Source: Escherichia coli (GTDB lineage: Bacteria; Pseudomonadota; Gammaproteobacteria; Enterobacterales; Enterobacteriaceae). Taken from it: DNA of 64,000 nucleotides. Below are positions 498 to 44,408 of this stretch, one piece after another. Position numbers and translations under genes: made by a program. Below the pieces are notes generated by a model. The model was not told the DNA's origin. It was given only the letters and a program-made list of their open reading frames with translations, and ran no database searches. Numbering within the stretch: position 1 is the stretch's first letter; each line of letters begins with the position of its first letter. Location of the stretch: NCBI RefSeq assembly GCF_044324875.1, contig NZ_CP172186.1. The stretch is one strand, 5' to 3'.

Positions 498-652
498 AAA
501 AGTCTCGCTCCGTGAAACCTGCAAAATTTCTCGGGGTGTGCGGCTTAATTTTTAGATTTCCGCGTTTCCCGTCATTTGAGTCAATGGAGTGCTGGTTGAC
601 AGCTCCCTGCTCTGAAGGACGGGGATTCCCACATATGCAGCCAGATTTCCGG

Positions 653-760
653 CTAGTGTGGTTTCAGACGTTGTTCGATTTCATTCTGTAGCGCCTGAAG
701 TGTGCCTGATTTGAGGTTTTTTGTGCTCTGGCGGTCGAAAAGAATTTCAATGCGGATCAT
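653..760 (-). CDS. micro-ORF (35 aa, MIRIEILFDRQSTKNLKSGTLQALQNEIEQRLKPH) immediately downstream of a LexA box; possibly a longer gene broken by an in-frame TAG
   Basis: ATG at 758-760 (minus) preceded by AAGGGAG Shine-Dalgarno; below the ORF-track length cutoff; 23 further sense codons follow the TAG. Confidence 0.3.
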   Translation of the reverse strand: MIRIEILFDRQSTKNLKSGTLQALQNEIEQRLKPH

Positions 761-781
761 GTTCTCATCTCCCTTTTATTT

Positions 782-801
782 TACTGTGTATATATACAGT
801 A
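782..801. promoter_or_regulatory. LexA (SOS) box
   Basis: TACTGTGTATATATACAGTA = CTGT-N8-ACAG palindrome, near-perfect match to the E. coli LexA operator consensus. Confidence 0.6.
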
Positions 802-1153
802 TTCTAATAACTGAATCCACACACAGTCAAATGTCATTGTTGTGACTAAAAAACGCTCAATTCTCTGAGAGTGTGGCTGTATGCCTGCTGTGGACTGCTG
901 TGTCCAGCTTATCCACAGCATTTTGTGCACGGTTCTGTGGACAAAATACCTGGTTACCCAGGCCGTGCCGGCACGTTAACCGGGCTGCATCCGATGCAAG
1001 TGTGTCGCTGTCGCCGGCCTTCTCACCCGGTCACGTTTCGTCGTTCCTCCTCCACGAGCTGCGGCTTCGGGGCCGCACCTGCATTCGTATGCGGTCGCCC
1101 GGTTACAGGTGCGGCACGGCCTGATGGAGGCCGCATGTGAGAGGAGAATTCCC

Positions 1154-2080
1154 ATGCCAAACTGGTGCTCAAATCGTATGTATTTTTCTGGTGAACCGGC
1201 ACAGATTGCTGAGATTAAACGACTGGCCAGCGGTGCAGTCACACCGTTTTATCGCCGCGCCACAAATGAAGGTATTCAGCTGTTTCTGGCCGGAAGTGCC
1301 GGACTTCTGCAGACCACTGAAGATGTGCGGTTTGAACCATGTCCCGGACTGACGGCTGCCGGACGTGGCGTTGTATCGCCGGAGAATATCGCGTTCACCC
1401 GCTGGCTGACATACCTGCAGGACGGTGTACTGCTGGATGAGCAAAACTGCCTGATGCTGCATGAACTCTGGCTGCAGAGCGGTACTGGACAGCGTCGCTG
1501 GGAAGGATTACCGGACGATGTCAGGGATACCATCACCGCACTTTTCACCGCAAAAAGAGGTGACTGGTGTGGCTTCTGGAGTAACGAAGATGTATCGGTG
1601 TGGTGGAACCGTCTGTGTGACAACGTACTGCCGGAAAAAACCATGCCGTTTGACCTGCTGACGGTTCTGCCCACCCGCCTGGATGTTGAAGTGAATGGCT
1701 TTAACGGTGGTGTTCTGAACGGTGTTCCTTCTGCATATCACTGGTATACGGAACGGTATGGCGTGAAGTGGCCTGTGGGGTATGAGGTGAATATCAGTAA
1801 TCAGGGAGACAACTTCATTAAGGTGGATTTCGACACGCCGTGGTGTCAGCCGGAAAGCGACGTTATTGCAGAATTAAGCCGCCGTTTCAGCTGCACGCTG
1901 GAGCACTGGTATGCCGAACAGGGCTGTGATTTCTGTGGCTGGCAGTTGTATGAGCGCGGAGAGCTCGTTGATGTGCTGTGGGGGGAACTGGAATGGTCTT
2001 CCCCGACAGATGACGATGAGCTGCCGGAAGTCACCGGACCTGCGTGGATAGTCGACAATGTGGCGCATTATGGCGGATGA
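1154..2080 (+). CDS. leading-region hypothetical protein (possibly DUF1281-like)
   Basis: 308 aa from MPNWCSNRMYFSGEP; GAGGAG Shine-Dalgarno 8 nt upstream; start chosen inside the 1109..2080 ORF. Confidence 0.6.
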   Translation: MPNWCSNRMYFSGEPAQIAEIKRLASGAVTPFYRRATNEGIQLFLAGSAGLLQTTEDVRFEPCPGLTAAGRGVVSPENIAFTRWLTYLQDGVLLDEQNCLMLHELWLQSGTGQRRWEGLPDDVRDTITALFTAKRGDWCGFWSNEDVSVWWNRLCDNVLPEKTMPFDLLTVLPTRLDVEVNGFNGGVLNGVPSAYHWYTERYGVKWPVGYEVNISNQGDNFIKVDFDTPWCQPESDVIAELSRRFSCTLEHWYAEQGCDFCGWQLYERGELVDVLWGELEWSSPTDDDELPEVTGPAWIVDNVAHYGG

Positions 2081-2462
2081 AGTATGACGGAGACGGGCGG
2101 GCAACTGCCCGTTTCTTTTCCGGTAAAGGATGTCGCCATGCTCCTCTTTTTACTGCGCCGGCTGACGCGGCGCGGCATAAACGCTGCCTGTGGTCAGTGT
2201 CCCGCGTCCGGTGGGCACGGGACGGGCGCTTTTACCGCTCCCGGCTGGCGTCGGTGACAGTGTACGCCAGCCTGTCGCCCTTTTCTGATGAACGCCCTTC
2301 AAGCCGCTTTCGCGGCATAACCTTGCCGTCAAACAGACGACGGCTGCGGTATTCCACGGTCGGCCTGACCCGTTACCGGACGCGGTGAACAGCCCACAGG
2401 CAGCGGGGAACGGGCACCACAGGGGTGCCCTCCCGGTGCCCCCTGTAAGAGAAGGAGCTGTT

Positions 2463-3146
2463 ATGTCCCGTTTTATCCTGGGTGACTGCGTGCGTGTTAT
2501 GGCCACGATTCCTGATAACGCCATTGATTTCATATTAACCGATCCGCCATATCTCGTCGGTTTCCGTGACCGTTCCGGGCGCACCATTGCCGGTGACGTT
2601 AATGATGACTGGCTGCAACCGGCCTGTAATGAGATGTACCGCGTACTCAAAAAAGACGCGCTGATGGTCAGCTTCTACGGCTGGCACCGTATTGACCGCT
2701 TTATGGCGGCCTGGAAACGCGCCGGATTCAGCGTGGTTGGCCACCTGGTCTTCACCAAAAACTACACATCCAAATCTGCGTATGTCGCGTACCGCCACGA
2801 ATGCGCTTACATCCTGGCAAAGGGCAGTCCGGCCCGGCCCCGTAACCCGCTGCCGGATGTGCTGGGCTGGAAATATTCGGGCAACCGCCATCACCCGACG
2901 GAAAAGCCCGTTACCAGCCTGCAACCGCTGATTGAGAGCTTCACACATCCGAACGCGATTGTGCTGGATCCGTTTGCAGGCAGCGGTTCAACCTGCGTGG
3001 CCGCCCTTCAGTCCGGACGCCGGTATATCGGTATCGAGCTGCTTGAACAGTATCACCGTGCCGGACAGCAACGACTGGCCGCCGTGCAACGGGCCATGCA
3101 GCAGGGGGCCGCGAATGATAACTGGTTTATGCCGGAGGCTGCGTAA
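2463..3146 (+). CDS. orphan DNA methyltransferase (amino-methyltransferase, DPPY motif)
   Basis: 227 aa; ...FILTDPPYLVGF... catalytic motif and ...LDPFAGSGST... AdoMet-binding motif; GAAGGAG RBS; no adjacent restriction gene. Confidence 0.85.
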   Translation: MSRFILGDCVRVMATIPDNAIDFILTDPPYLVGFRDRSGRTIAGDVNDDWLQPACNEMYRVLKKDALMVSFYGWHRIDRFMAAWKRAGFSVVGHLVFTKNYTSKSAYVAYRHECAYILAKGSPARPRNPLPDVLGWKYSGNRHHPTEKPVTSLQPLIESFTHPNAIVLDPFAGSGSTCVAALQSGRRYIGIELLEQYHRAGQQRLAAVQRAMQQGAANDNWFMPEAA

Positions 3147-3368
3147 ATGAACTATGCCGGACACGAAAAACTTCGCGCCGACGTGGCGGAGGTGGCCAAT
3201 GCCATGTGCGACCTGCGTACAACCATGAATGAGATGGAGCGGCGGTACAGCTTTAATGCTGACACCCTGCCGGAACGTCTGGTGCGTCAGACGTTGTTTC
3301 GCGCAAACCGCCTCCTGATGGAGGCATATACCGAAATTCTGGAACTGGATTCCTGCTTCAAAGATTGA
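3147..3368 (+). CDS. hypothetical small protein, translationally coupled to the methyltransferase
   Basis: 73 aa; start overlaps methyltransferase stop (TAAATG). Confidence 0.45.
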   Translation: MNYAGHEKLRADVAEVANAMCDLRTTMNEMERRYSFNADTLPERLVRQTLFRANRLLMEAYTEILELDSCFKD

Positions 3369-3381
3369 GAAGGAGACGAGA

Positions 3382-3816
3382 ATGTACGGAACATGCGAAA
3401 CGCTATGCCGGGCGCTGGCAGCAAAGTATCCGGGAGATACGCCGCTGATGCTGGTTATCTGGTCCCCGGAAGAAATTCAGGCCCTCGCTGACGGAATGGA
3501 TATTTCCCTGTCCGATCATGAAATCAGGACTGTCCTGGCGCGGCTGGCGGACATCCCGGAAGACCAGCGGACTGAGTCCGGTATTTCTTCCGGCGTGGCG
3601 ATGGAGATTATCAGCAACGTGAGCGAAAACCGCCAGGTGACCGTCCCGGCTGAACTGCTGGCGTCCCTGATTCAGACCGCCGAACAGGCACTGTGGAAAC
3701 GTGAATGGGCCGCCCGTGATTACGGCCTCGCCGTCCCGGAATGCGTCACCCGCCGTCAGGCGGTGGTTAATCAGGCCCGCATCCTGCTGAAAAACAACCC
3801 ACACGAAAACGACTGA
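3382..3816 (+). CDS. leading-region hypothetical protein (paralog of 5518..5937)
   Basis: 144 aa; shares length, acidic character and a VTVPA motif with the 5518 ORF. Confidence 0.6.
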   Translation: MYGTCETLCRALAAKYPGDTPLMLVIWSPEEIQALADGMDISLSDHEIRTVLARLADIPEDQRTESGISSGVAMEIISNVSENRQVTVPAELLASLIQTAEQALWKREWAARDYGLAVPECVTRRQAVVNQARILLKNNPHEND

Positions 3817-3860
3817 TGTTATCGCCGCCTTCGGGCGGCGATTCAGGGAGACCATGAATC

Positions 3861-4631
3861 ATGAACAAAACGCTGAATGCACTGGTTTGTCACCACGCCC
3901 GTAACCTGCTGCTGGCGCAGGGCTGGCCGGAAGAGACGGATGTTGACCAGCGTAACCCGAAGTATCCGGGCTGGATCAGCATTTATGTTCTGCTGGATGC
4001 GCCCCGGCTGGCGACGTTACTTATCAACCGTCACGGCGGCGTACTGCCGCCGCTCCTGGCCTCCGCCATTCACAAACTGACCGGAACCGGGGCGGAAGTT
4101 GTACTGTCCGGCAGTCAGTGGCAGTCGCTGCCGGTACTTCCGGCAGACGGAACGCAGGTGTCTTTCCCGTATGCCGGAGAATGGCTGACCGAAGACGAAA
4201 TCAGGGCAGTTCTTGATGCAGTGCGCGATGCGGTACGCAGTGTCAGTTGCCGGGTGACAGAAGATGCGCGGCGTATCAGGGCGGCGCTGACCACAACCGG
4301 TCAGACGTTGCTGACCCGCCAGACGCGGCGCTTTCGCCTGGTTGTGAAGGAAAGCGATCACCCCTGCTGGCTCGATGAAGACGACGAAAACCTGCCCGTG
4401 GTGCTCGATGCCATCCTGAACCGGGGCGCTCGTTTTTCTTCGGTGGAAATGTATCTGGTCAGTGAGTGTGTGGAGCATATCCTGTCCAGTGGGCTGGCCT
4501 GCGATGTGCTGCGTATACCGGATGAACCGCCCCGCCGGTGGTTTGACCGTGGTGTTCTGCGGGAGGTGGTCCGGGAAGCCCGGGCCGAAATCCGCAGCAT
4601 GGCGGATGCCCTGGCAAAAATCCGGAAATGA
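3861..4631 (+). CDS. leading-region hypothetical protein
   Basis: 256 aa ORF, same strand and codon style as neighbours. Confidence 0.6.
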
Positions 4632-4687
4632 TGACGCTGGCGGGGAAAAATCTCCGCCTTTTCCAGCCGGTCCCCGGAAAGAGCAAA

Positions 4688-5040
4688 AGGATGTCGCCGC
4701 AGGCTCCGCTTTACTCGGCCATGCGGGGCATGGCCTTGTGGGTTTTCAGTTATGTGGCCTCAGCGTCGTGTGCGGGCTGTGCCGTGCCTCCATCGTAGCC
4801 GGGCTTCTGCGGGCGGGTTGCAAGGTAAGGTGAACCGCTGCGGTCACCCGGTCCCTCCTTCCCGTCTGCCGTGATTTTCCGGTCGTTCACCCGCTCAGAT
4901 TTCGCGGTCTCACCCTCCAACTCCCGCCAGCCGTGTGCGTCAGGCTGCGGCTTCCCTTGCGCCCTTGCAACCCTGCAGGCCCGGCAAAGATGGAGGCACG
5001 GCACCGCCCGGTGTCGCGGAATATGTGAACAACGGAGGAA
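4688..5040 (+). promoter_or_regulatory. single-strand-promoter-like structured element, family A copy 1 (upstream of klcA)
   Basis: ~350-bp GC-rich element with long-range inverted repeats (TGCCGTGCCTCCATC ... GATGGAGGCACGGCA), near-identical to 16918..17275. Confidence 0.5.
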
Positions 5041-5045
5041 ATCCC

Positions 5046-5471
5046 ATGCAGTATGCGAAACCTGTCACCCTGAACGTTGAAGAGTGCGACCGCCTTTCTT
5101 TTCTGCCTTACCTGTTTGGCAACGATTTTCTGTATGCCGAGGCGTATGTGTACGCGCTGGCGCAAAAAATGATGCCGGAATATCAGGGAGGCTTCTGGCA
5201 TTTCATCCGCCTGCCGGACGGTGGCGGTTACATGATGCCGGATGGCGACCGTTTTCATCTGGTCAACGGTGAAAACTGGTTTGACCGCACTGTGAGTGCT
5301 GATGCCGCAGGCATCATTGTTACGTCTCTTGTGATTAACCGCCAGTTGTGGCTGTACCACGACAGCGGGGATGCGGGACTGACACACCTGTACCGGATGC
5401 GTGATGCGCAGTTGTGGCGTCACATCGAATTTCACCCCGAATGCAACGCGATTTACGCGGCACTGGACTGA
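5046..5471 (+). CDS. klcA: antirestriction protein KlcA/ArdB family
   Basis: 141 aa from MQYAKPVTLNVEECDRLSFLPYLFGNDFLYAEAYVYALAQ..., recalled KlcA/ArdB signature. Confidence 0.75.
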   Translation: MQYAKPVTLNVEECDRLSFLPYLFGNDFLYAEAYVYALAQKMMPEYQGGFWHFIRLPDGGGYMMPDGDRFHLVNGENWFDRTVSADAAGIIVTSLVINRQLWLYHDSGDAGLTHLYRMRDAQLWRHIEFHPECNAIYAALD

Positions 5472-5517
5472 TTAACGGACGGGGCGGCAATGCCGCCCCT
5501 GTAAAGGAGACGAGAAC

Positions 5518-5937
5518 ATGTACTGTACTGTTAAAGAAATTATCCGCGAAGTGCTGAATACAGACGTGCCGGACAGTGAATGTGTTTTTGCCGTGGTGCT
5601 GACCCGCGGGGATGTGCGCCACATAGCCCGGGACTGGAACCTGTCAGACGATGAGCTGGAAACCGTCATGCAGCGGCTGGACGATGCTTTTGTATATGGC
5701 GCATGTGACAGAGTTGTTTCCGATATTGTCAATGAACTGATGGAGGAAAAGCGCGTAAACCGTCTTGTAACAGTTCCTGCGGTGCTGCTGGAAAAAGTGA
5801 TGGTGATGGCTGGTAGTGAAATTTATCGCCTCCATGCTGTAGGGAGCGAGAACGGGGGCGACGGTGACGCATTTGTCAGGGAAGAACGTGAGATTATGCG
5901 GGTAATGCGTCAGGCGCTGGACGGGGAGAACGGGTAA
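5518..5937 (+). CDS. leading-region hypothetical protein (paralog of 3382..3816)
   Basis: 139 aa; RBS GGAGACGAG. Confidence 0.6.
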   Translation: MYCTVKEIIREVLNTDVPDSECVFAVVLTRGDVRHIARDWNLSDDELETVMQRLDDAFVYGACDRVVSDIVNELMEEKRVNRLVTVPAVLLEKVMVMAGSEIYRLHAVGSENGGDGDAFVREEREIMRVMRQALDGENG

Positions 5938-6128
5938 TGAATATCAGCACGGAAACCCGCGAAATTCTGCGTAATTACAGGGCCGTGATTAATGCGCGGC
6001 GTCGTGAAATGGGGCAGAAACCGCTCACCACCGCGCAGATTGTTGATGAAATCTGTGATTTTGTGGCGAATCAGCAGGCGGTTTTCCTCGGTGGTCACTA
6101 TATCCTTCAGGGCAGCAGGCACAGGTGA
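5937..6128 (+). CDS. hypothetical small protein
   Basis: 63 aa, start overlaps previous stop. Confidence 0.35.
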   Translation: MNISTETREILRNYRAVINARRREMGQKPLTTAQIVDEICDFVANQQAVFLGGHYILQGSRHR

Positions 6129-6289
6129 TACAGGGGCAGGCGGTGGAGGCCGCCTGTCAGCCCGCGCGAAAACCCCTGGCAGGCTGGCGCCTGCCGGAAG
6201 GGATGCGGGCCACGCTGGCGCGTCGCCCGTTACCCTTCCTGTTGGTGACAGGCGTTGTTTCAGGAAGTACCTGTTACAGACCTGTCGTT

Positions 6290-6875
6290 AAAGAACCTTC
6301 TTACACATGCGCCCCTTCGGCTCCCGGCTGCCTGGCGGCATCCGGTCGTCAGGCCCGACTCCGACAGGCAGCTGCTGGCGCACCCGCCAGTCTCCGCCGA
6401 ACCCGCTGGCGCGGTTTCGGGCTGTCGCTACGGTCCGATGCGTGAAAACCCGGGCTTGCAGCGACCGTTCCGGTCGCGCCGCCTCTGTCGCGCCGTGACC
6501 TGCGCTCCCTGCACACCTGACGGTGTGTGAGGAAACTGCGCCTGATGGCGCAGCAGTCCTCCCTCCTGCCGCCACCTCTGCGGCCTGTTTCCCGCTGTGG
6601 ACTTTCCGGGGGGCAGACGTAACCCCCTCCCGTTCCATCTGTCCAGGGTGAGATGCACCGGCCACAAAATTTTTAGCCATGAACCCGGCAAAAAATTTTG
6701 CGTCCGCCCCCGGACAGCTGCCCCGTGAGGCGGTAAACGGGCCCCCATCGGAAAGGTCCACTGCGGGGAGAAACCCCTGTGAAGTGGACGGCAGGAGGAG
6801 CTTTCGCTCCTCTGAAGGGGCACATGAACGTCCCGTCGCCGGTATCCGGTTTATCTCACATCTTTCAGTCAGGAG
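6290..6875 (+). promoter_or_regulatory. single-strand-promoter-like structured element, family B copy 1 (upstream of ssb)
   Basis: ~580-bp GC-rich repeat also found at 17935..18505 and, 3' part only, 20990..21380; contains CCACAAAA(C/T)TTTT...GCGTC(C/T)GCCCCCGGACA(G/A)CTGCCCCGTG core. Confidence 0.5.
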
Positions 6876-6881
6876 GTTCTT

Positions 6882-9800
6882 ATGAGTGCACGTGGTATCA
6901 ACAAGGTCATCCTCGTCGGGGTGCGCCGTTGAAGCGCGGTGTTTTATGGAGTGTTGCCTGAAAAGCAACATGGCTTAGTGGTATAGCCATTGCATACTGT
7001 GGTTAGCCTTGCTTGGTAACAGGCTCGGAGATCCTGAAAAGGAGAGGTGAACATAGCATCCACAGAAAAGGGTGGTGAATATGGAAATCGTTATAAGTAT
7101 CACCATTCAATGCAAGATGTATATGGATAAACTGGGTTTGTTGAAGTCGAGATCTATGTGGGAAACAGGAAACCAATAACGCAGAACGATTGAAGCGTTA
7201 TTCCCGTACTAGCACAAGAAATCCGTCCGACGTTGATTGTGACCACTCTAACGGGCCAGCTATTGATGAAATAGTTAAACGATCGAAAGACATCCTAAGT
7301 ACATCGCATCTCCACACCGTGAAACTACGGGACTACCTAAACTGGATTTATACCCAGCATGGTAGCGGAGTCTCCATAGTACTCAAGGTCGGCCTGTAAT
7401 GGGTTCCGGCAGTCCGCATTATACGGAAGCAGCAAAGGTATAAATCAACCGGAAGGAAGATGAAAGCCTCACAGTGCTGCGGGGAAGGGAGACAGTTGTT
7501 AGATACATCAATCTCTAAGAGGAGGGTTAGCCAATGCTGCCTGATGAACTTGAGAAAAGATTAGATGGAATTGAGGATGCTTCAAAAAAAGGGTATCCAG
7601 TACGTAATCTATACAAAATTGCGTGTGAGCCCGGACTGTGGCTGCAAGCCTACGTGAATATACGGGCCAATGCAGGTGCACTGACTCAAGGTGTATCAAC
7701 AGATACCATTGATGGCTTTTCTATCGAAAGAGCAGAGAAGCTGGCAAAAACATTGCGGAGTAGAGAATACGTAGCGAAACCTGTACGCAGAGTTCAGATC
7801 CCAAAAAAGGACGGAAAAACCAGACCGCTGGGGATTCCAGGTGGAGACGATAAACTGGCGCAAGAAGTAGCAAGAATTATTCTGGAAAGGGTTTATGAAC
7901 CAGTATTCTCTGAACACTCTCATGGATTCAGACCAAAACGTTCGTGTGAAACTGCGCTCAGATCTATTCGTCCAGTCTGGAACGGAGTTAAATGGATCGT
8001 GGATGTTGATATCAAAGGTTTCTTTGACAATATCCCCCACAAACTATTGCTGAATACACTGGCAGAGAAAATTAAGGATAAGAATTTCCTGAAATTAATC
8101 GAACAGTGGCTGAAGGCAGGATATGTGGACAATTGGAAATACCATCGCTCATATTCTGGCACGCCACAAGGTGGGATAATTTCTCCCTTACTGGCAAATA
8201 TATACCTCGACAAACTGGACCGTTTTGTAGAACAGAATTTAATTCCTGCATATACAAGCGGTACAAAACGAAGAGCGAATCCAGATATGAACAGGCTGGC
8301 CCATAAGATTCATAAACTACGAAAGAAAGTAGACGGTATGGCAACTGATTCTGAATCAGAAAAAGAAGCCATAAAGAAAGAAATTGAACGACTGCTTGAA
8401 GAAAAACGTTCTATACCATCTCAGGTCATGAACGATCCAAACTTCAGGCGTATGTACTATGTTCGATATGCTGATGACTTCGTAATCGGTGTCATCGGCT
8501 CGAAGAAAGATGCTGAACATATATCAAGACAGGTCAGAAACTTTATTACTACTTCACTGGGATTGGAAGTTAATGAAGCAAAGACCAGGATCCGCCATAT
8601 CTCAGAAGGAGTTAATTTTTTAGGCTATGAAATCAGACAGGCAGATGCAAAGAAATTGCTGAAGCAGAAAATGCAAGGGCGGCACGCTCTCCGGAGATCC
8701 ACCACAGGAATTGTGCAGCTCTTCGTTCCTGACAATATAGCCGCTAAATTTTGTCACCAAAAGAAATATGGCTGTTATGAGAATGTGAAGGCTGTACATC
8801 GTTCAAGTCTACAAAATCTCAGTGAAGCTGAAATTGTTCTGACTTTCAACGCGGAAATGCGCGGATTGGCGAACTACTACAGTCTGGCGCTGGACATGAA
8901 ATATAAATTATCAAAATTATATTTCATATGGCAAATAAGCCTTTTTAAGACCCTGGCGAATAAACGACGTAGTTCAGTGAATAAAGTCGCCAAATCGCTA
9001 CGGCAAAATAATGGAGATCTGGCTATTACCGTTCAGGCCAAAAATGGATCCCGAAAGATTGAGGTTTTCAAACTCAAACATGTCAATCGCAACCGAACAA
9101 CGATTGTCGATACGGAACCGAGAACCGCACATATCACAACCCGCACAACAGAGATCATGCGTCGATTAGGGGCAAGGATCTGCGAGTATTGTGCGAAGAC
9201 TGGGCGCTGCGAAGTACATCATGTCAGAAAGCTAAAAGACCTGAAGAAAGGTCGTAAGGCCGGATATAAACCCAGCTTGTGGCAACTAATGATGATCGCA
9301 CGCCGCCGGAAAACGATGATTTTGTGCGCAAGTTGCCACGACAAGTTACATAGCGGAAAACTACCCGATTTGAGACAGGAAAAGGGAAGAATACTCCTGC
9401 AACCACCTGTCTCAAGCGGGGATTCTGCTAAATGAGTTTATCCCCAATAAGCTAGCAATGGAGAGCCGTATGCACTGAAAGGTGCACGTACGGTTCGGAG
9501 GGGGGGTAACGGTGATCTAACTCAAGATAAGCAGGACATATTCGCCATTTATCTTGAAAGACCACACGTACCCTACCCTACCGTCTGGGCAATGATCCGG
9601 AAGTCTGTTACATCCCCAACGGGGGCGCAGTGGCAAACCTGCAGGTCGCCACGTCAGAAAGCTGGCGCGACAAACAGACGGGGGAGATGCGGGAGCAGAC
9701 GGAATGGCACCGCGTGGTGCTGTTCGGCAAGCTCGCGGAAGTGGCTGGTGAATATCTGCGCAAGGGCGCGCAGGTCTACATCGAGGGGCAACTCCGTACC

Positions 9801-10064
9801 CGTAGCTGGGAGGATAACGGTATCACCCGTTACGTCACTGAAATTCTTGTTAAGACCACGGGCACCATGCAGATGCTGGGGAGTGCACCACAGCAGAACG
9901 CTCAGGCGCAACCGAAGCCTCAGCAGAATGGGCAGCCACAGAGTGCTGACGCGACGAAAAAAGGTGGCGCGAAAACGAAAGGCCGTGGACGTAAGGCCGC
10001 GCAGCCGGAGCCTCAGCAGCCGTCTGAACCCGCGTATGACTTCGATGACGACATTCCGTTCTAA
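6882..10064 (+). CDS. ssb: plasmid single-stranded DNA-binding protein, split by a group II intron (exon 1 6882..6920, exon 2 9582..10064)
   Basis: Exon 1 [13 protein letters not shown]; exon 2 [35 protein letters not shown]...DDIPF; exons are in frame and together match the plasmid SSB N-terminus. Confidence 0.8.
7534..9435 (+). CDS. group II intron-encoded reverse transcriptase/maturase with HNH endonuclease domain
   Basis: 633 aa; RT motifs [31 protein letters not shown]; C-terminal CEYC...HHV...CASCHDKLH zinc/HNH motif. Confidence 0.9.
   Translation: MLPDELEKRLDGIEDASKKGYPVRNLYKIACEPGLWLQAYVNIRANAGALTQGVSTDTIDGFSIERAEKLAKTLRSREYVAKPVRRVQIPKKDGKTRPLGIPGGDDKLAQEVARIILERVYEPVFSEHSHGFRPKRSCETALRSIRPVWNGVKWIVDVDIKGFFDNIPHKLLLNTLAEKIKDKNFLKLIEQWLKAGYVDNWKYHRSYSGTPQGGIISPLLANIYLDKLDRFVEQNLIPAYTSGTKRRANPDMNRLAHKIHKLRKKVDGMATDSESEKEAIKKEIERLLEEKRSIPSQVMNDPNFRRMYYVRYADDFVIGVIGSKKDAEHISRQVRNFITTSLGLEVNEAKTRIRHISEGVNFLGYEIRQADAKKLLKQKMQGRHALRRSTTGIVQLFVPDNIAAKFCHQKKYGCYENVKAVHRSSLQNLSEAEIVLTFNAEMRGLANYYSLALDMKYKLSKLYFIWQISLFKTLANKRRSSVNKVAKSLRQNNGDLAITVQAKNGSRKIEVFKLKHVNRNRTTIVDTEPRTAHITTRTTEIMRRLGARICEYCAKTGRCEVHHVRKLKDLKKGRKAGYKPSLWQLMMIARRRKTMILCASCHDKLHSGKLPDLRQEKGRILLQPPVSSGDSAK
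9461..9494 (+). ncRNA. group II intron domain V (catalytic hairpin)
   Basis: 34-nt hairpin GAGCCGTATGCAC-TGAAAG-GTGCACGTACGGTTC matching the domain V pattern. Confidence 0.65.
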
Positions 10065-10119
10065 CGAAAGACAGTGACAACCGCCCCGTCCAGTGCGGGG
10101 CATCACCGGAGAGATGAGG

Positions 10120-12864: not shown

Positions 12865-13071
12865 GCGCATGCAAAATGGCATCTGAATCGATCGCAGTTT
12901 GGCATTCGAATCGATCATGATTTGGCATCCATCTCCGATCACAGTTTGGCATCACAATCGATCACGATTTGGCATGCTTCCGATCATTGATTGGCATCCT
13001 GCCAGTCACTCCGGGAATTAACTCTTTTCACCACAGTCTCCATTGCCGTGTTTAAACCAGTGGAGACGTCA

Positions 13072-14637
13072 ATGTCCAGAAAGAGAAAATCCAGGAGCAC
13101 TATGGAAACCTGTTTTAAGATCCTTCAGCTCAAGTTCGACAAGAAGCTGACTAACCGTTGTATCGGACTGACGTTACACATCAGCGCCTCAACCGTTTTT
13201 GAGGTTCTTGCCCGCTTCAAAGCCTCTTCTCTGTCATGGCCATTACCTGCTGATATATCCCATGACACGCTGGAGAAACTCATTTTTCCGCCCAAAGACA
13301 CCTTTGCATCAGAGCTTGTAATGCCTGACATGTTGTACTTCGATACGGAAATGAGAAAACCAGGTGTGACGCGGCAACTGTTGTGGATGGAATACAAGGC
13401 ACAGGCGGGTAACAAAGCGATGGGATACTCGCACTTCTGCCGTTGCTACCGGGAGTGGAAAAAAACGCGACGTCTCTCCATGCGCCAGGAGCATCGTGCC
13501 GGCGAAAAGCTTTTTATCGACTTCTGTGGTCCTACGGTTCCTGTTATTAATCCGGACACCGGTGAGATACGCCGCGTGGCAATCTTCGTGGCCGTAATGG
13601 GGGCGTCCAACTATACCTACGTTGAAGCGTGCGAAGGTCAGGACATGATGTCATGGTTAAATGCCCACAGCCGTTGCCTGACCTTCCTGGGCGGCGTACC
13701 GAAGCTGCTCATCCCCGATAACCTCAGAAGCGCAGTGAAAAAGGCCGATCGATATGAGCCTGTCATCAACGACAGTTATCAGGCACTGGCTGAGCACTAT
13801 GGCACGGTTATCATCCCGGCCCGACCACGCAAACCTAAAGATAAACCAAAAGCAGAAAACGGCGTCCTCATCGTTGAACGATGGCTTCTTGCCCGCATCC
13901 GTAATGAAACCTTCCACACGCTCAGGGCGCTGAATGCGCGCCTTAGGGAGTTACTGACAGACATGAATAACCGGCCAATGAAGGGGTACGGCAATCAAAC
14001 CCGTGCAGAACGCTTCCGCATACTGGATGCGCCAGCACTCTCTCCGCTGCCTCTGGCACCTTATGAATACACGGAATACAAAGCTGTGAAGGTTGGCCCT
14101 GACTACCACGTTGAATATGCCCGTCACTGGTACTCCGTTCCACACGAACTGGTCGGTCAGCGTCTGTCACTGAAGGCGGGGCAGTCGGTGGTACAGCTCT
14201 GGCACAAGGGGCAGTGTGTGGCGCAACATCCGCGCAGCACACATGAATATAAACACACAACCAATCCGCTTCACATGCCAGAGCGCCACCGGCAGCACGG
14301 GACATGGACACCGGAACGCCTGATCGAGCAGGGAAAACGTACGGGCCCGTCCACAGGCCGGGTGGTTGAATCCATGCTGAAGGCAAAACCCCATCCGGAA
14401 CTGGCTTATCGTGCAGTTCTGGGGCTGCTGGCACTTCAGAAAAAATACGGCCCGGAACGGCTGGAAAAGGCCTGTTACGTTGCCCTGCACTATAACGCCC
14501 CTGACAGACGCTTTATCGACAATCTGCTGCGTCACCATCGGGAGAACCTGGAGCTTCCATTATCCCGCCAGGGCGAACAACATCCGGCATATGCTTCAGA
14601 GCATGAAAACCTGCGTGGTCCGGGCTACTACCACTGA
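13072..14637 (+). CDS. istA: IS21-family transposase IstA
   Basis: ~521 aa, HTH N-terminus and DDE integrase core; start chosen at MSRKRKS after GGAGACG RBS. Confidence 0.85.
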   Translation: MSRKRKSRSTMETCFKILQLKFDKKLTNRCIGLTLHISASTVFEVLARFKASSLSWPLPADISHDTLEKLIFPPKDTFASELVMPDMLYFDTEMRKPGVTRQLLWMEYKAQAGNKAMGYSHFCRCYREWKKTRRLSMRQEHRAGEKLFIDFCGPTVPVINPDTGEIRRVAIFVAVMGASNYTYVEACEGQDMMSWLNAHSRCLTFLGGVPKLLIPDNLRSAVKKADRYEPVINDSYQALAEHYGTVIIPARPRKPKDKPKAENGVLIVERWLLARIRNETFHTLRALNARLRELLTDMNNRPMKGYGNQTRAERFRILDAPALSPLPLAPYEYTEYKAVKVGPDYHVEYARHWYSVPHELVGQRLSLKAGQSVVQLWHKGQCVAQHPRSTHEYKHTTNPLHMPERHRQHGTWTPERLIEQGKRTGPSTGRVVESMLKAKPHPELAYRAVLGLLALQKKYGPERLEKACYVALHYNAPDRRFIDNLLRHHRENLELPLSRQGEQHPAYASEHENLRGPGYYH

Positions 14638-14653
14638 CAGAAGGAACAACAGT

Positions 14654-15409
14654 ATGAGTGATAACCTGTTAAACAAACTGACCCAACTGAAACTCCCGGC
14701 GATGGCCGGGAGCCTGATACGGCAGCGGGAAACGCCTCAGACCTACGACGAACTGTCGTTCGAGGAAAGGCTGACGCTGCTGGTTGATGACGAGCTTCTG
14801 AGCAGGGAAAACAGCCGTGTGGCACGGTTGAGAAAAAATGCCGGCCTGAAATACCAGGCAACACCGGAAGGGCTGCGCTATCCGGCCTCAAGAGGTCTGC
14901 GGGCTGAACAGATGAGAGAACTGCTGAACGGCCACTACATAACCCACAGGAAAAACCTGCTGATAACCGGTCCGACAGGATGTGGCAAGAGCTGGATAGC
15001 CAATGCGCTGGGCGAACAGGCATGTCGACAGAAACACAGCGTCCGGTACTGTAGAACCGGGCGATTACTGGAACAACTGGCTCAGGGACGTGTTGATGGC
15101 AGCTGGCTGAAATATCTGAAACAGTTGCAAAAAATACAGGTTCTAATCCTGGACGATCTGGGGCTGGAACAGTTAAGTAACGCCCAGTGTAATGACCTTC
15201 TGGAGCTCATAGAGGATCGTTACGGACAAAGCAGCACGATAGTGGTAAGCCAGTTCCCGGTAGATAAATGGCATGGTCTGATGGAGAACCCAACAACAGC
15301 AGATGCCATCCTGGACAGACTGGTACATAACTCACACCGAGTGGTCCTTCAGGGAGAGTCACTGAGGAAAAATCCCCCGGTAGTGGAAAGCAGCGAAAAA
15401 ACGCGTTAA
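14654..15409 (+). CDS. istB: IS21-family helper ATPase IstB
   Basis: 251 aa; Walker A LLITGPTGCGKSW, Walker B ILILDDLG. Confidence 0.9.
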   Translation: MSDNLLNKLTQLKLPAMAGSLIRQRETPQTYDELSFEERLTLLVDDELLSRENSRVARLRKNAGLKYQATPEGLRYPASRGLRAEQMRELLNGHYITHRKNLLITGPTGCGKSWIANALGEQACRQKHSVRYCRTGRLLEQLAQGRVDGSWLKYLKQLQKIQVLILDDLGLEQLSNAQCNDLLELIEDRYGQSSTIVVSQFPVDKWHGLMENPTTADAILDRLVHNSHRVVLQGESLRKNPPVVESSEKTR

Positions 15410-16917: not shown

Positions 16918-17275
16918 GGAATAAGGACGTCGCCGCCGGCTCCGCTTTTACCCGGCCATGCGGGGCATGGCCTTGTGGGTTTTCAGCTCTGTGGCCTCAG
17001 CGTCGTGTGCGGGCTGTGCCGTGCCTCCATCGTAGCCGGGCTTCTGCGGGCGGGATGCAAGGTAAGATGAACCGCTGCGGTCACCCGGTCCCTCCTTCCC
17101 GTCTGCCGTGATTTTCCGGTCGTTCACCCGCTCAGATTTCGCGGTCTCACCCTCCAACTCCCGTCAGCCGTGCGCGTCGGGCTGCGGCTTTCCTTGCGCC
17201 CTTGCATCCCTGCAGGCCCGGCAAAGATGGAGGCACGGCACCGCCCGGTGTCGCAGAACATGTGACTATGGAGGA
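16918..17275 (+). promoter_or_regulatory. single-strand-promoter-like structured element, family A copy 2 (upstream of ardA)
   Basis: Near-identical to 4688..5040. Confidence 0.5.
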
Positions 17276-17282
17276 TTCGGGA

Positions 17283-17783
17283 ATGTCTGTTGTTGCACCT
17301 GCTGTATACGTTGGAACCTGGCACAAATATAACTGCGGAAGCATCGCCGGCCGCTGGTTTGACCTGACCACGTTTGATGATGAACGCGATTTTTTCGCCG
17401 CCTGCCGTGCCCTTCACCAGGATGAAACCGATCCGGAACTGATGTTTCAGGATTATGAGGGTTTCCCGGGGAATATGGCCTCTGAATGTCATATCAACTG
17501 GGCCTGGGTTGAAGGCTTCCGCCGGGCACGGGATGAAGGCTGCGAAGAGGCTTATCGTCTCTGGGTGGATGATACCGGTGAGACGGATTTTGACAGCTTC
17601 CGCGATGCCTGGTGGGGCGAGGCTGACAGTGAGGAGGCTTTTGCGGTTGAGTTCGTCAGTGATACCGGCCTGCTGGCTGACGTGCCGGAGACGGTGGCGC
17701 TCTATTTTGACTATGAGGCGTATGCGCGGGATTTATTCCTGGACTCCTTCACCTTTATTGACGGTCATGTGTTCCGTCGGTGA
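17283..17783 (+). CDS. ardA: antirestriction protein ArdA
   Basis: 166 aa MSVVAPAVYVGTWHKYNCGSIAGRWFDLTTFDDE...; acidic DNA-mimic, matches recalled ArdA. Confidence 0.9.
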   Translation: MSVVAPAVYVGTWHKYNCGSIAGRWFDLTTFDDERDFFAACRALHQDETDPELMFQDYEGFPGNMASECHINWAWVEGFRRARDEGCEEAYRLWVDDTGETDFDSFRDAWWGEADSEEAFAVEFVSDTGLLADVPETVALYFDYEAYARDLFLDSFTFIDGHVFRR

Positions 17784-17934: not shown

Positions 17935-18505
17935 TGTTGTTCTGATGCCCGGAGGCGGGGACACCCTTCGGCTCCCGGCTGCCTGGCGGCATCCGGTCGT
18001 CGGCCCGACTCCGACAGGCAGCTGCTGGCGCACCCGCCAGTCTCCGCCGAACCCGCTGGCGCGGTTTCGGGCTGCCGCTACGGTCCGATGTCTGAAAAAC
18101 CAGGCCTGCAGCGACCGTTCCGGTCGCGCCGCCCCTGTCGCGCCGGAAACGGCGCTCCCTGCACACCTGACGGTGTGTAAGGCCACTGCGCCTGATGGCG
18201 CAGTCAACCCTTCCGCCGCCACCCCTGCGGCCTGTTTCCCGCTGTGGACTTTCCGGGGGCTGAAGCGGCCACAACACGGGGCAGCCGTCCAGGGGAGAGA
18301 TGTACCAGCCACAAAACTTTTTGCCGCAGGCGTCAAAAACTTTTGCGTCTGCCCCCGGACAACTGCCCCGTGCCGTGGCAGTCGCTGCCCCATCGGAAAG
18401 GTCCACTGCGGGGAGAAACCCCGAAGAAGTGGACGGCAGAAGGGGCTTTCGCCCCTCCGGGGGAGCAACCGGTCGGCCCGGCGACCTGATTCAGCAGAAG
18501 GAGAC
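17935..18505 (+). promoter_or_regulatory. single-strand-promoter-like structured element, family B copy 2
   Basis: Near-identical to 6290..6875. Confidence 0.5.
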
Positions 18506-20989: not shown

Positions 20990-21380
20990 TGTTGTGCCGT
21001 CGTTTTTCTTCAGTCGCGCCGGATGCGGCGCTCCCTGCACACCTTACGGTGTGTAAGGCCACTGCGCCTGATGGCGCAGCTGCCTCTGCCTGTCTGCCGC
21101 CGCACTGCGGCCTGTTCTCCGCAGACGGACTTTCCGGGGGTACATACACGACCACATCCCGTTTCAGTCGTCCAGGGGAGAGATGTACCAGCCACAAAAC
21201 TTTTTGCCGCAGGCGTCAAAAACTTTTGCGTCTGCCCCCGGACAACTGCCCCGTGACGTGGTGAGCGTCCCCCGTCGGAAAGGTCCACTGCGGGGAAATC
21301 CCCGAAGACCCGGACGGCAGAAGGAGCTTCGCTCCTCCGGGAAATGACCTGGCTGACCCGGCAGTCGTGACGATGAGGAG
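20990..21380 (+). promoter_or_regulatory. single-strand-promoter-like structured element, family B copy 3 (3' two-thirds only)
   Basis: Matches the 3' part of 6290..6875 and 17935..18505. Confidence 0.45.
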
Positions 21381-41785: not shown

Positions 41786-42541
41786 TTAACGCGTTTTTTC
41801 GCTGCTTTCCACTACCGGGGGATTTTTCCTCAGTGACTCTCCCTGAAGGACCACTCGGTGTGAGTTATGTACCAGTCTGTCCAGGATGGCATCTGCTGTT
41901 GTTGGGTTCTCCATCAGACCATGCCATTTATCTACCGGGAACTGGCTTACCACTATCGTGCTGCTTTGTCCGTAACGATCCTCTATGAGCTCCAGAAGGT
42001 CATTACACTGGGCGTTACTTAACTGTTCCAGCCCCAGATCGTCCAGGATTAGAACCTGTATTTTTTGCAACTGTTTCAGATATTTCAGCCAGCTGCCATC
42101 AACACGTCCCTGAGCCAGTTGTTCCAGTAATCGCCCGGTTCTACAGTACCGGACGCTGTGTTTCTGTCGACATGCCTGTTCGCCCAGCGCATTGGCTATC
42201 CAGCTCTTGCCACATCCTGTCGGACCGGTTATCAGCAGGTTTTTCCTGTGGGTTATGTAGTGGCCGTTCAGCAGTTCTCTCATCTGTTCAGCCCGCAGAC
42301 CTCTTGAGGCCGGATAGCGCAGCCCTTCCGGTGTTGCCTGGTATTTCAGGCCGGCATTTTTTCTCAACCGTGCCACACGGCTGTTTTCCCTGCTCAGAAG
42401 CTCGTCATCAACCAGCAGCGTCAGCCTTTCCTCGAACGACAGTTCGTCGTAGGTCTGAGGCGTTTCCCGCTGCCGTATCAGGCTCCCGGCCATCGCCGGG
42501 AGTTTCAGTTGGGTCAGTTTGTTTAACAGGTTATCACTCAT
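41786..42541 (-). CDS. istB: IS21-family IstB (copy 2)
   Basis: Protein identical to copy 1 IstB. Confidence 0.9.
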   Translation of the reverse strand: MSDNLLNKLTQLKLPAMAGSLIRQRETPQTYDELSFEERLTLLVDDELLSRENSRVARLRKNAGLKYQATPEGLRYPASRGLRAEQMRELLNGHYITHRKNLLITGPTGCGKSWIANALGEQACRQKHSVRYCRTGRLLEQLAQGRVDGSWLKYLKQLQKIQVLILDDLGLEQLSNAQCNDLLELIEDRYGQSSTIVVSQFPVDKWHGLMENPTTADAILDRLVHNSHRVVLQGESLRKNPPVVESSEKTR

Positions 42542-42557
42542 ACTGTTGTTCCTTCTG

Positions 42558-44123
42558 TCAGTGGTAGTAGCCCGGACCACGCAGGTTTTCATGCTCTGAA
42601 GCATATGCCGGATGTTGTTCGCCCTGGCGGGATAATGGAAGCTCCAGGTTCTCCCGATGGTGACGCAGCAGATTGTCGATAAAGCGTCTGTCAGGGGCGT
42701 TATAGTGCAGGGCAACGTAACAGGCCTTTTCCAGCCGTTCCGGGCCGTATTTTTTCTGAAGTGCCAGCAGCCCCAGAACTGCACGATAAGCCAGTTCCGG
42801 ATGGGGTTTTGCCTTCAGCATGGATTCAACCACCCGGCCTGTGGACGGGCCCGTACGTTTTCCCTGCTCGATCAGGCGTTCCGGTGTCCATGTCCCGTGC
42901 TGCCGGTGGCGCTCTGGCATGTGAAGCGGATTGGTTGTGTGTTTATATTCATGTGTGCTGCGCGGATGTTGCGCCACACACTGCCCCTTGTGCCAGAGCT
43001 GTACCACCGACTGCCCCGCCTTCAGTGACAGACGCTGACCGACCAGTTCGTGTGGAACGGAGTACCAGTGACGGGCATATTCAACGTGGTAGTCAGGGCC
43101 AACCTTCACAGCTTTGTATTCCGTGTATTCATAAGGTGCCAGAGGCAGCGGAGAGAGTGCTGGCGCATCCAGTATGCGGAAGCGTTCTGCACGGGTTTGA
43201 TTGCCGTACCCCTTCATTGGCCGGTTATTCATGTCTGTCAGTAACTCCCTAAGGCGCGCATTCAGCGCCCTGAGCGTGTGGAAGGTTTCATTACGGATGC
43301 GGGCAAGAAGCCATCGTTCAACGATGAGGACGCCGTTTTCTGCTTTTGGTTTATCTTTAGGTTTGCGTGGTCGGGCCGGGATGATAACCGTGCCATAGTG
43401 CTCAGCCAGTGCCTGATAACTGTCGTTGATGACAGGCTCATATCGATCGGCCTTTTTCACTGCGCTTCTGAGGTTATCGGGGATGAGCAGCTTCGGTACG
43501 CCGCCCAGGAAGGTCAGGCAACGGCTGTGGGCATTTAACCATGACATCATGTCCTGACCTTCGCACGCTTCAACGTAGGTATAGTTGGACGCCCCCATTA
43601 CGGCCACGAAGATTGCCACGCGGCGTATCTCACCGGTGTCCGGATTAATAACAGGAACCGTAGGACCACAGAAGTCGATAAAAAGCTTTTCGCCGGCACG
43701 ATGCTCCTGGCGCATGGAGAGACGTCGCGTTTTTTTCCACTCCCGGTAGCAACGGCAGAAGTGCGAGTATCCCATCGCTTTGTTACCCGCCTGTGCCTTG
43801 TATTCCATCCACAACAGTTGCCGCGTCACACCTGGTTTTCTCATTTCCGTATCGAAGTACAACATGTCAGGCATTACAAGCTCTGATGCAAAGGTGTCTT
43901 TGGGCGGAAAAATGAGTTTCTCCAGCGTGTCATGGGATATATCAGCAGGTAATGGCCATGACAGAGAAGAGGCTTTGAAGCGGGCAAGAACCTCAAAAAC
44001 GGTTGAGGCGCTGATGTGTAACGTCAGTCCGATACAACGGTTAGTCAGCTTCTTGTCGAACTTGAGCTGAAGGATCTTAAAACAGGTTTCCATAGTGCTC
44101 CTGGATTTTCTCTTTCTGGACAT
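42558..44123 (-). CDS. istA: IS21-family IstA (copy 2)
   Basis: Protein identical to copy 1 IstA. Confidence 0.85.
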   Translation of the reverse strand: MSRKRKSRSTMETCFKILQLKFDKKLTNRCIGLTLHISASTVFEVLARFKASSLSWPLPADISHDTLEKLIFPPKDTFASELVMPDMLYFDTEMRKPGVTRQLLWMEYKAQAGNKAMGYSHFCRCYREWKKTRRLSMRQEHRAGEKLFIDFCGPTVPVINPDTGEIRRVAIFVAVMGASNYTYVEACEGQDMMSWLNAHSRCLTFLGGVPKLLIPDNLRSAVKKADRYEPVINDSYQALAEHYGTVIIPARPRKPKDKPKAENGVLIVERWLLARIRNETFHTLRALNARLRELLTDMNNRPMKGYGNQTRAERFRILDAPALSPLPLAPYEYTEYKAVKVGPDYHVEYARHWYSVPHELVGQRLSLKAGQSVVQLWHKGQCVAQHPRSTHEYKHTTNPLHMPERHRQHGTWTPERLIEQGKRTGPSTGRVVESMLKAKPHPELAYRAVLGLLALQKKYGPERLEKACYVALHYNAPDRRFIDNLLRHHRENLELPLSRQGEQHPAYASEHENLRGPGYYH

Positions 44124-44408
44124 TGACGTCTCCACTGGTTTAAACACGGCAATGGAGACTGTGGTGAAAAGAGTTAATTCCCGGAGTGACTGGCAGGATG
44201 CCAATCAATGATCGGAAGCATGCCAAATCGTGATCGATTGTGATGCCAAACTGTGATCGGAGATGGATGCCAAATCATGATCGATTCGAATGCCAAACTG
44301 CGATCGATTCAGATGCCATTTTGCAGGTAAAAATGGCAATTTTTTTCATGCTGTATTTTTGCCATTTATTTTCTTTGAAATGGTTTTTTTCTTCATATCA
44401 GCAAATAA

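Follow-up and report, generated by a model that had tools for sequence, protein, structure and literature searches.

We here describe the interval 1154-6128 of a window of 64,000 nucleotides (nt) of Escherichia coli DNA, to whose positions all numbering refers, which holds the gene of an orphan DNA methyltransferase and seven companion open reading frames (ORFs), all on the + strand. From upstream to downstream these are a DUF1281 gene, the methyltransferase, orf73, a first DUF1380 paralogue (DUF1380a), orf256, klcA, a second DUF1380 paralogue (DUF1380b) and orf63. Three long structured non-coding stretches (about 875-1153, 2081-2462 and 4632-5045) divide the genes into separate transcription units. 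A preliminary description of this DNA had listed the ORFs, motifs and junctions, each of which is present at its coordinates according to ORF listing and sequence reading. Positions 1000-6300 are 100% identical to the E. coli plasmid pLH50-c-A (NZ_CP100501.1; IncK2/Z, MOBP, MPF_I), and among plasmids of Escherichia, Klebsiella, Salmonella and Shigella a BLAST search finds the region at 90% identity or more in at least 5000 records. Downstream on the same strand, both the window and NZ_CP100501.1 continue with ssb, a DUF905 gene, a ParB-like gene, psiB, psiA, ardA and nikA/nikB. As this order runs through ssb, psiB, psiA and ardA to nikA/nikB, the interval very likely represents the end of a conjugative leading region distal to the origin of transfer (oriT). 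Gene order and orientation in pESBL (IncI1) and F (IncF) are those of the window.

The gene at 2463..3146 (+ strand) encodes a β-class N6-adenine DNA methyltransferase of 227 residues, the orthologue of M.EcoGIX (YfeA of F, YfbB of R64). Motif IV of the (D/S)PP(Y/F) type, here TDPPY at residues 25-29, is located N-terminal to the S-adenosylmethionine (SAM) motif I of the FxGxG type, here DPFAGSGST at residues 169-177 (FAGSGST, 171-177), and Pfam N6_N4_Mtase (PF01555) is matched with E=1e-37, in agreement with the β-class. Membership of the M.EcoGIX/PRK13699 family follows from a full-length match to NCBIfam NF010253 (489 bits, cut-off 244), with 96% identity to M.EcoGIX of pESBL and 92% to YfeA of F. 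The nearest solved relatives are CcrM, RsrI and DpnA (5HEK, E=8e-12), and MboIIA also aligns. Pairwise ratios of nonsynonymous to synonymous substitution rates (dN/dS) amount to 0.10-0.14, and the methylase motifs are intact, which speaks against a catalytically dead enzyme, an alternative considered earlier. No restriction endonuclease was recognized, as none of the seven neighbours matches nuclease models of PADLOC, NCBIfam or Pfam, and the locus hence does not present itself as a type II restriction-modification system. The first reading, which placed an orphan methyltransferase with a DPPY motif in the leading region of a plasmid, is thus upheld by motifs, profiles and the lack of a restriction-enzyme-like neighbour in PADLOC, and the same arrangement recurs in thousands of plasmids. 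The gene is oriented as ssb, psiB, ardA and nikAB, as in pESBL, and is placed downstream of a hairpin region conserved at 97%, the setting of leading-region genes transcribed from single-stranded DNA (ssDNA) promoters.

The orthologue M.EcoGIX has been characterized previously. It shields pESBL up to 1000-fold against EcoGIII or EcoRI in recipients (PMC4288162), and it places N6-methyladenine (m6A) on single-stranded DNA only, promiscuously at SAY and on one strand, an ssDNA-specific SAY activity published for M.EcoGIX and M.BceJIII (PMC7736820). The enzyme is produced in the recipient from the entering single strand, which it then methylates (PMC7736820). Of the earlier proposal that such methylases pre-methylate incoming DNA, the protection therefore stands, as shown for the 96% identical M.EcoGIX, whereas pre-methylation does not, the enzyme being made in the recipient and acting on the strand as it enters. 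The activity comes at a cost, as the m6A renders DNA sensitive to EcoKMrr, with M.EcoGIX-expressing plasmids restricted 10- to 10,000-fold, and M.EcoGIX reduces plasmid copy number and M13 yield (PMC7736820).

Directly downstream, orf73 (YfeB, YubE; phrog_4830; 3147..3368, + strand) encodes 73 residues, and its ATG abuts the methyltransferase stop codon TAA (3144-3146; gcgTAAATGaac). Across 21 related loci, the E. coli-type clade has TAAATG at this junction, and a distant clade has either TAATG or TGATG. As contact of stop and start is kept throughout, the coupling is conserved and not a product of chance, in line with the TAAATG coupling of a 73-residue ORF noted initially. The reading frame is constrained (dN/dS 0.11-0.33, with synonymous divergence, dS, up to 1.5), matches its PHROG family with E=3e-34 and has homologues in at least 5000 plasmids; no match was detected in the local Pfam library and no significant sequence match in the PDB. 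Two database proteins, P0003 (217 residues) and P0012 (194 residues), are in-frame fusions of orf73 and DUF1380a, each found in one contig, and on their orf73 part Pfam PF27407 is recorded, a family newer than the local Pfam library. Among plasmids, orf73 falls into two allele classes (93-100% versus about 79% identity). Between the window and F (L004, 5851-6069), dS of orf73 is 0.90, compared to 0.07 for the flanking DUF1380a, which suggests recombination between leading-region alleles within the operon.

The two proteins of about 140 residues that flank orf256 and klcA had been described as paralogues, and this relation is recovered, though it is distant. DUF1380a (3382..3816, + strand; 144 residues) matches Pfam PF07128 with E=1e-52, and DUF1380b (YcjA, YcgC, YubJ; 5518..5937, + strand; 139 residues, isoelectric point (pI) 4.5) is linked to the family through DUF1380a, with 29% identity over 111 residues (BLASTP E=3e-7) and a profile-profile alignment by hhalign with 95% probability (E=4e-8) that covers residues 1-105 only. 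Among 15 aligned DUF1380 members, PF07128 is matched at E<=0.001 in 11 and at E<=0.1 in 14. Values of dN/dS are 0.15-0.37 for DUF1380a and 0.26-0.29 for DUF1380b, which is missing from most distant loci. In the AlphaFold 2 model, DUF1380a is all-helical, with six helices, no strand of three or more residues and a predicted local distance difference test score of 81, and structure matches are confined to generic helical hairpins. Supplementary Table 1 of Samuel et al. 2024 shows the DUF1380 families with the UniProt-transferred label 'adenine-specific methyltransferase'. The all-helical model, in which a Rossmann-type SAM fold is not recognized, and the lack of any DUF1380 match to methylase families in NCBIfam, PHROGs, PADLOC and Pfam argue against this label, and a widespread database annotation is thereby questioned. 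Between one and four DUF1380 copies are present per locus, and the family expands and diversifies independently of the methylase. In the Citrobacter werkmanii locus (L023, 6001-9515) there are four paralogues, all starting MYGT or MYCT, one of them between DUF1380a and orf256.

The last gene of the methylase block, orf256 (YchA, YffB, YubG, NgrC family; 3861..4631, + strand), encodes an alpha/beta protein of 256 residues (dN/dS 0.17-0.51) with a confident predicted model that has no structural neighbour in the PDB. Sequence searches of the PDB returned nothing significant for DUF1380a, orf256 and orf73, and a Foldseek search of a companion-protein model against AFDB50 retrieved its own uncharacterised family only. 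No functional family was assigned to orf73, orf256 or orf63 in the NCBIfam, PHROGs, PADLOC and Pfam scans. The literature on DUF1380, DUF1281 and the yfe, yff and yub gene names yielded no functional study, and the alternative that all neighbours carry annotated, unrelated functions finds no such annotations. GC-rich perfect hairpins without a T-run are located in the gap between DUF1380a and orf256 (3821-3842) and between klcA and DUF1380b (5478-5500), and two loci (L011 and L021) have a comparable hairpin between orf73 and DUF1380a.

The second operon opens with a klcA/ardB-type anti-restriction gene (YfgB of F; 5046..5471, + strand), whose product aligns nearly full length to the solved structures of KlcA (2KMG, E=2e-18) and ArdB (2WJ9, E=2e-8), matches the PHROG anti-restriction family (E=7e-21) and is 98% identical to that of F (dN/dS 0.04-0.14). 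It is followed by DUF1380b and orf63 (5937..6128, + strand), a basic protein of 63 residues that is 97% identical in F and pESBL (dN/dS 0.05-0.29) and has no significant match in the local Pfam library. Here a second coupled pair is present, as the stop of DUF1380b overlaps the start of orf63 (TAATG, 5935-5939). Upstream of the methylase block, the DUF1281 gene (YfdA, YubB; 1154..2080, + strand), with GAGAGGAG preceding its ATG, encodes 308 residues (pI 4.4; dN/dS 0.19-0.28) and is the counterpart of the structural-genomics protein Api92 (2IJR, E=8e-51), with matches to PF06924 (E=3e-49) and to DUF1281_C, PF18406 (E=5e-15). The 2IJR alignment begins at residue 3, which supports the start at 1154 over the shorter RefSeq start. 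DUF1281, DUF1380a, DUF1380b and KlcA are all acidic (pI 4.4-5.1).

A consensus scan of positions 500-7000 detected no sigma-70-like promoter on the + strand. Folding of the transferred (-) strand against shuffled controls gives z-scores of -5.8 for 2081-2462, -5.2 for 4632-5045 and -5.2 for 840-1153. The first of these, 2081..2462 (- strand), is the putative class-3 ssDNA promoter region of the methylase operon (ssp3), with 97% mean column identity among the window, pESBL and F; in the latter two, the corresponding DNA is where a class-3 ssDNA promoter has been mapped in front of the M.EcoGIX operon, with start sites in pESBL determined by 5' rapid amplification of cDNA ends (PMC12672017). In an alignment of nine versions from two clades, the consensus structure comprises 89 pairs, 10 of them with compensatory changes and very few broken. 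Paired cells are satisfied in 792 of 801 cases on the - strand (46 G:T) and in 749 of 801 on the + strand (3 G:T), a count biased by the derivation of the consensus structure on the - strand. Independent folding agrees on the direction, as the - strand of ssp3 is the more stable one in all nine sequences, by about 2-7 kcal/mol. RefSeq places a 'hypothetical protein' of 103 residues at 2077-2388, with an ATGA overlap to the DUF1281 stop, and we considered it as a coupled gene. It lies on the ssp3 hairpin, its substitutions (23/19/18) do not favour any codon position, and it is not retained as an ORF in distant loci; it is probably a spurious annotation.

The second element, 4632..5045 (- strand), is the putative class-2 ssDNA promoter region of the klcA operon (ssp2). 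Positions 4710-5009 are 97% identical to 16947-17246, just 5' of ardA (17283-17783), and this repeat matches the published class-2 promoter pair preceding klcA and ardA (PMC12672017). A conserved transferred-strand hairpin upstream of an operon, the feature that marks ssDNA promoters, is hence found for both the class-3 and the class-2 element. The KlcA/ArdB family is described as acting against type I systems. Inhibition of type I restriction has been reported for R64 ArdB and inferred for YfgB of F, and in F, ssp2 is also a roadblock to complementary-strand synthesis that is resolved by UvrD and extends early expression (preprint 10.64898/2026.01.09.698686). When ssp2 is deleted from F, transfer into a recipient with the type II system EcoGIII drops 36-fold, and ssp3 in place of ssp2 restores it (preprint 10.64898/2026.01.09.698686). 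Given the type I target of its family, KlcA may not explain this type II effect, which would point to DUF1380b or orf63.

The third element, 875..1153 (- strand), is hyperconserved structured non-coding DNA upstream of the DUF1281 gene. These 280 nt are 97-99% identical among the window, pESBL, F and an Escherichia sp. contig (L008), with F being unrelated further upstream, and they contain a perfect DnaA box (TTATCCACA) at 909-917 and an inverted near-copy at 936-944. Six ssDNA promoters have been reported for pESBL, and this stretch is not one of them; it could be an additional ssDNA promoter or a priming site.

Conservation was assessed in 19 loci from a one-genome-per-species scan for DUF1380 relatives, titled Klebsiella, Enterobacter, Raoultella, Yersinia pestis, Lelliottia, Salmonella arizonae, Citrobacter, Intestinirhabdus and Entomohabitans, with a few mislabelled assemblies among them. 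The order methyltransferase-orf73-DUF1380a is found in all 19, and orf256 comes next in 18, the exception (L010, 1,337 bases) being a sequence that ends inside DUF1380a. In the distant clade, identity is 84-85% for the methyltransferase, 49-75% for orf73, 55-58% for DUF1380a and 38-61% for orf256, and the presence of klcA, DUF1380b and orf63 is more variable across loci. All seven companion ORFs are under purifying selection, with pairwise dN/dS below 0.55 for every ORF, and orf73 and orf63, wherever they occur among the loci, retain their length, frame and start. The distant clade has an extra conserved ORF between DUF1281 and the class-3 promoter (L021 4296-5054, L022 1950-2594, L023 4330-5088; 126 residues in L021 and L023), which the window lacks. 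In Samuel et al. 2024, the families of the window rank among the largest leading-region families and are listed as uncharacterised, with median positions from oriT of 21 for the methyltransferase (family 8), 19 for DUF1380a (family 7), 16 for KlcA (family 9) and 22 for DUF1281 (family 27), each encoded on the transcribable strand. For families 11, 10 and 14 of this study (positions 20, 18 and 15), the probable counterparts are orf73, orf256 and DUF1380b, a pairing made from database names and position only.

Just outside the interval, at its oriT-proximal border, a repeat at 6150..6850 (- strand; repeat families D2-D15, with further copies at 18002-18483 and 21013-21329) would be a class-1 (Frpo/ssi-type) element opening the next early operon, that of ssb, an assignment made from its position following PMC12672017. 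A group II intron (7534-9581; reverse transcriptase ORF 7534-9435, Rfam RF00029 at 9461-9581) is situated between this repeat and ssb (9592-10077) and may separate ssb from its putative ssDNA promoter; NZ_CP100501.1, with an otherwise identical backbone, lacks the intron. Positions 12991-15409 and 41786-44204 are inverted copies of one overlapping pair of ORFs (548 and 332 residues), presumably an insertion sequence. One copy is part of the leading region, where it separates the positions of psiB and psiA, and three 45-nt direct repeats (12866-12980) immediately precede the copy at 12991.

Based on these analyses combined with the published work, we propose with high confidence that the interval forms the part of the leading region distal to oriT in a conjugative plasmid of the I-complex (IncK2/Z-like), with methylase and klcA early operons driven by ssDNA promoters and with companions that would be further early-acting proteins. 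The leading region would enter the recipient first and in single-stranded form, with the transferred strand being the template strand of all genes described here, and the long hairpins of this strand would act as promoters only while the DNA remains single-stranded. ssp3 would then drive methyltransferase, orf73, DUF1380a and orf256, and ssp2 would drive klcA, DUF1380b and orf63, with DUF1281 placed upstream behind its own hyperconserved hairpin. The methylase would put promiscuous m6A in SAY context on the entering strand, so that second-strand synthesis leaves many restriction sites hemimethylated and able to escape cleavage, and KlcA would block type I restriction. The remaining products, orf73, DUF1380a and DUF1380b, orf256, orf63 and DUF1281, would be further establishment or anti-defence proteins that act early on host targets, rather than subunits needed for methylation. 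In pESBL and F, the companion genes are induced within minutes of transfer.

Several points weigh against this reading. Functional evidence, that is methylase activity and protection, recipient-side expression, promoters and start sites and the ssp2 roadblock, all comes from orthologues that are 92-98% identical (PMC4288162, PMC7736820, PMC12672017, preprint 10.64898/2026.01.09.698686) rather than from the plasmid of the window, to which it would extend by orthology. Likewise, the putative -35/-10 elements and start sites of ssp3 and ssp2 are assigned from homology only, and the ssp3 covariation stems from two clades only, each compensatory pair being essentially one event. Neither in fold nor in sequence do the companions match any characterised anti-defence protein, and the 19 loci were ascertained via DUF1380 and are hence silent on methylases without DUF1380a. 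Finally, a partner role would be equally consistent with how strictly orf73 is linked and coupled to the methylase.

Such a role had been raised in the preliminary description, with orf73 and the DUF1380 paralogues as specificity or regulatory partners of the methyltransferase in a multi-subunit orphan methylase system, an explanation that we consider unlikely. The stop/start coupling of methyltransferase and orf73 in 21 of 21 loci, the order methyltransferase-orf73-DUF1380a-orf256 that is invariant in the sampled loci despite divergence of the companions to 40-60% identity, and the rare in-frame orf73-DUF1380a fusions are all compatible with it, and Fomenkov et al., who failed to keep purified M.EcoGIX active, suspected an absent partner (PMC7736820). 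However, the M.EcoGIX ORF cloned alone modifies SAY in vivo and the cell-free enzyme methylates ssDNA (PMC7736820), and the active relative M.BceJIII has downstream ORFs dissimilar to orf73, DUF1380 and orf256. In addition, DUF1380b, often absent, is part of the klcA operon, the DUF1380 copy number varies from 1 to 4 and the fusions are single database entries. The notion of specificity partners is thus not supported, though orf73 may have a regulatory or stabilising role. As a speculative and improbable elaboration, orf73, DUF1380a and orf256 could form a conserved accessory module of the ssDNA methylase instead of being independent effectors, which would tether it to the entering strand or PolI, confine its activity to the brief single-stranded phase, or neutralise type IV restriction and the replication cost. 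If true, orf256, a fold without solved structural neighbour, would add an anti-defence or regulatory activity of a new kind.

One or more of orf73, DUF1380a and orf256 might alternatively offset the liability of the methylase, by inhibiting m6A-dependent (type IV, Mrr-like) nucleases or by limiting methylase action, which appears very unlikely. Promiscuous m6A leads to Mrr-like targeting, as in the EcoKMrr restriction described above, and to slowed PolI-dependent replication (PMC7736820), and the companions are tightly linked to the methylase and co-transcribed with it in the predicted operon. Their charge would also be compatible, with DUF1380a acidic (pI 4.7), orf73 mildly acidic (pI 5.1) and orf256 near neutral (pI 6.3). 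No companion is similar to known type IV inhibitors, however, pBCJ2315 has no companion homologues beside M.BceJIII, and the idea is one of inference only. That orf73, orf63 and the 103-residue RefSeq ORF are annotation artefacts of GC-rich DNA, as the missing matches of orf73 and orf63 in the local Pfam library and the features of the RefSeq ORF on the promoter hairpin could imply, is extremely improbable given the dN/dS of orf73 and orf63, their retained length, frame and start wherever found, and the PHROG family of orf73.

Earlier publications already describe this system, as the early operons that carry M.EcoGIX and klcA in the leading regions of IncI and IncF plasmids, and the module adds no new kind of system. 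The present analysis contributes orthology, operon anatomy, covariation and strand bias of the hairpin, purifying selection on every ORF, and conserved synteny and coupling of the methylase block. Its value is as a pointer to five to six abundant, conserved, early-expressed proteins, whose families are among the most abundant uncharacterised ones of leading regions and occur in thousands of clinical resistance plasmids. With purifying selection, a four-gene coupled methylase block and an orf256 model without known structural relative, they represent clean targets for deletion and interaction studies.

Compared to known systems, the window is closest to the M.EcoGIX operon of the IncI1 plasmid pESBL (NC_018659) and to yfeA-yffB of F, which have the same order, spacing and orientation. 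Besides the methyltransferase, identity to pESBL and F is 96% and 77% for orf73, 95% and 94% for DUF1380a, and 95% and 94% for orf256, and the promoter DNA upstream of the operon is about 97% identical to both. The ssp2-klcA operon of F and pESBL is similarly conserved, with klcA 97-98% identical, followed by a DUF1380b homologue and orf63, and with a promoter repeat in common with ardA; only DUF1380b, at 80-82% identity to the F and pESBL copies, deviates, as it evolves faster than any other gene of the set when close plasmids are compared. The backbone differs, as the window is IncK2/Z-like with parM/stbB upstream, where pESBL has impCAB and F has sopAB, and DUF1281 is intact in the window but frameshifted in F. 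The Frpo/ssi promoters of F and ColIb-P9 are, like ssp2 and ssp3, long imperfect hairpins of the transferred strand upstream of leading-region operons, and these ssDNA promoters are active only ahead of second-strand synthesis (PMC12672017). ssp3 (class 3) and ssp2 (class 2) represent newer classes without sequence similarity to Frpo, with the putative class-1 copy just outside the interval. M.BceJIII of the Burkholderia cenocepacia plasmid pBCJ2315, which is 62% identical to the methyltransferase of the window, has the same published ssDNA SAY activity (PMC7736820). It is likewise found in a leading-region-like cluster with a ParB-like gene, but its downstream ORFs (168, 55 and 62 residues) are unrelated to orf73, DUF1380 and orf256 and lack stop/start coupling. 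DpnA of the Streptococcus pneumoniae DpnII system is, as the enzyme described here, a small β-class N6-adenine methylase, and guards incoming single-stranded transforming DNA against restriction. However, DpnA is GATC-specific and part of a complete, competence-induced restriction-modification cassette, whereas the methyltransferase of the window is an orphan, plasmid-borne and, by orthology, likely promiscuous.

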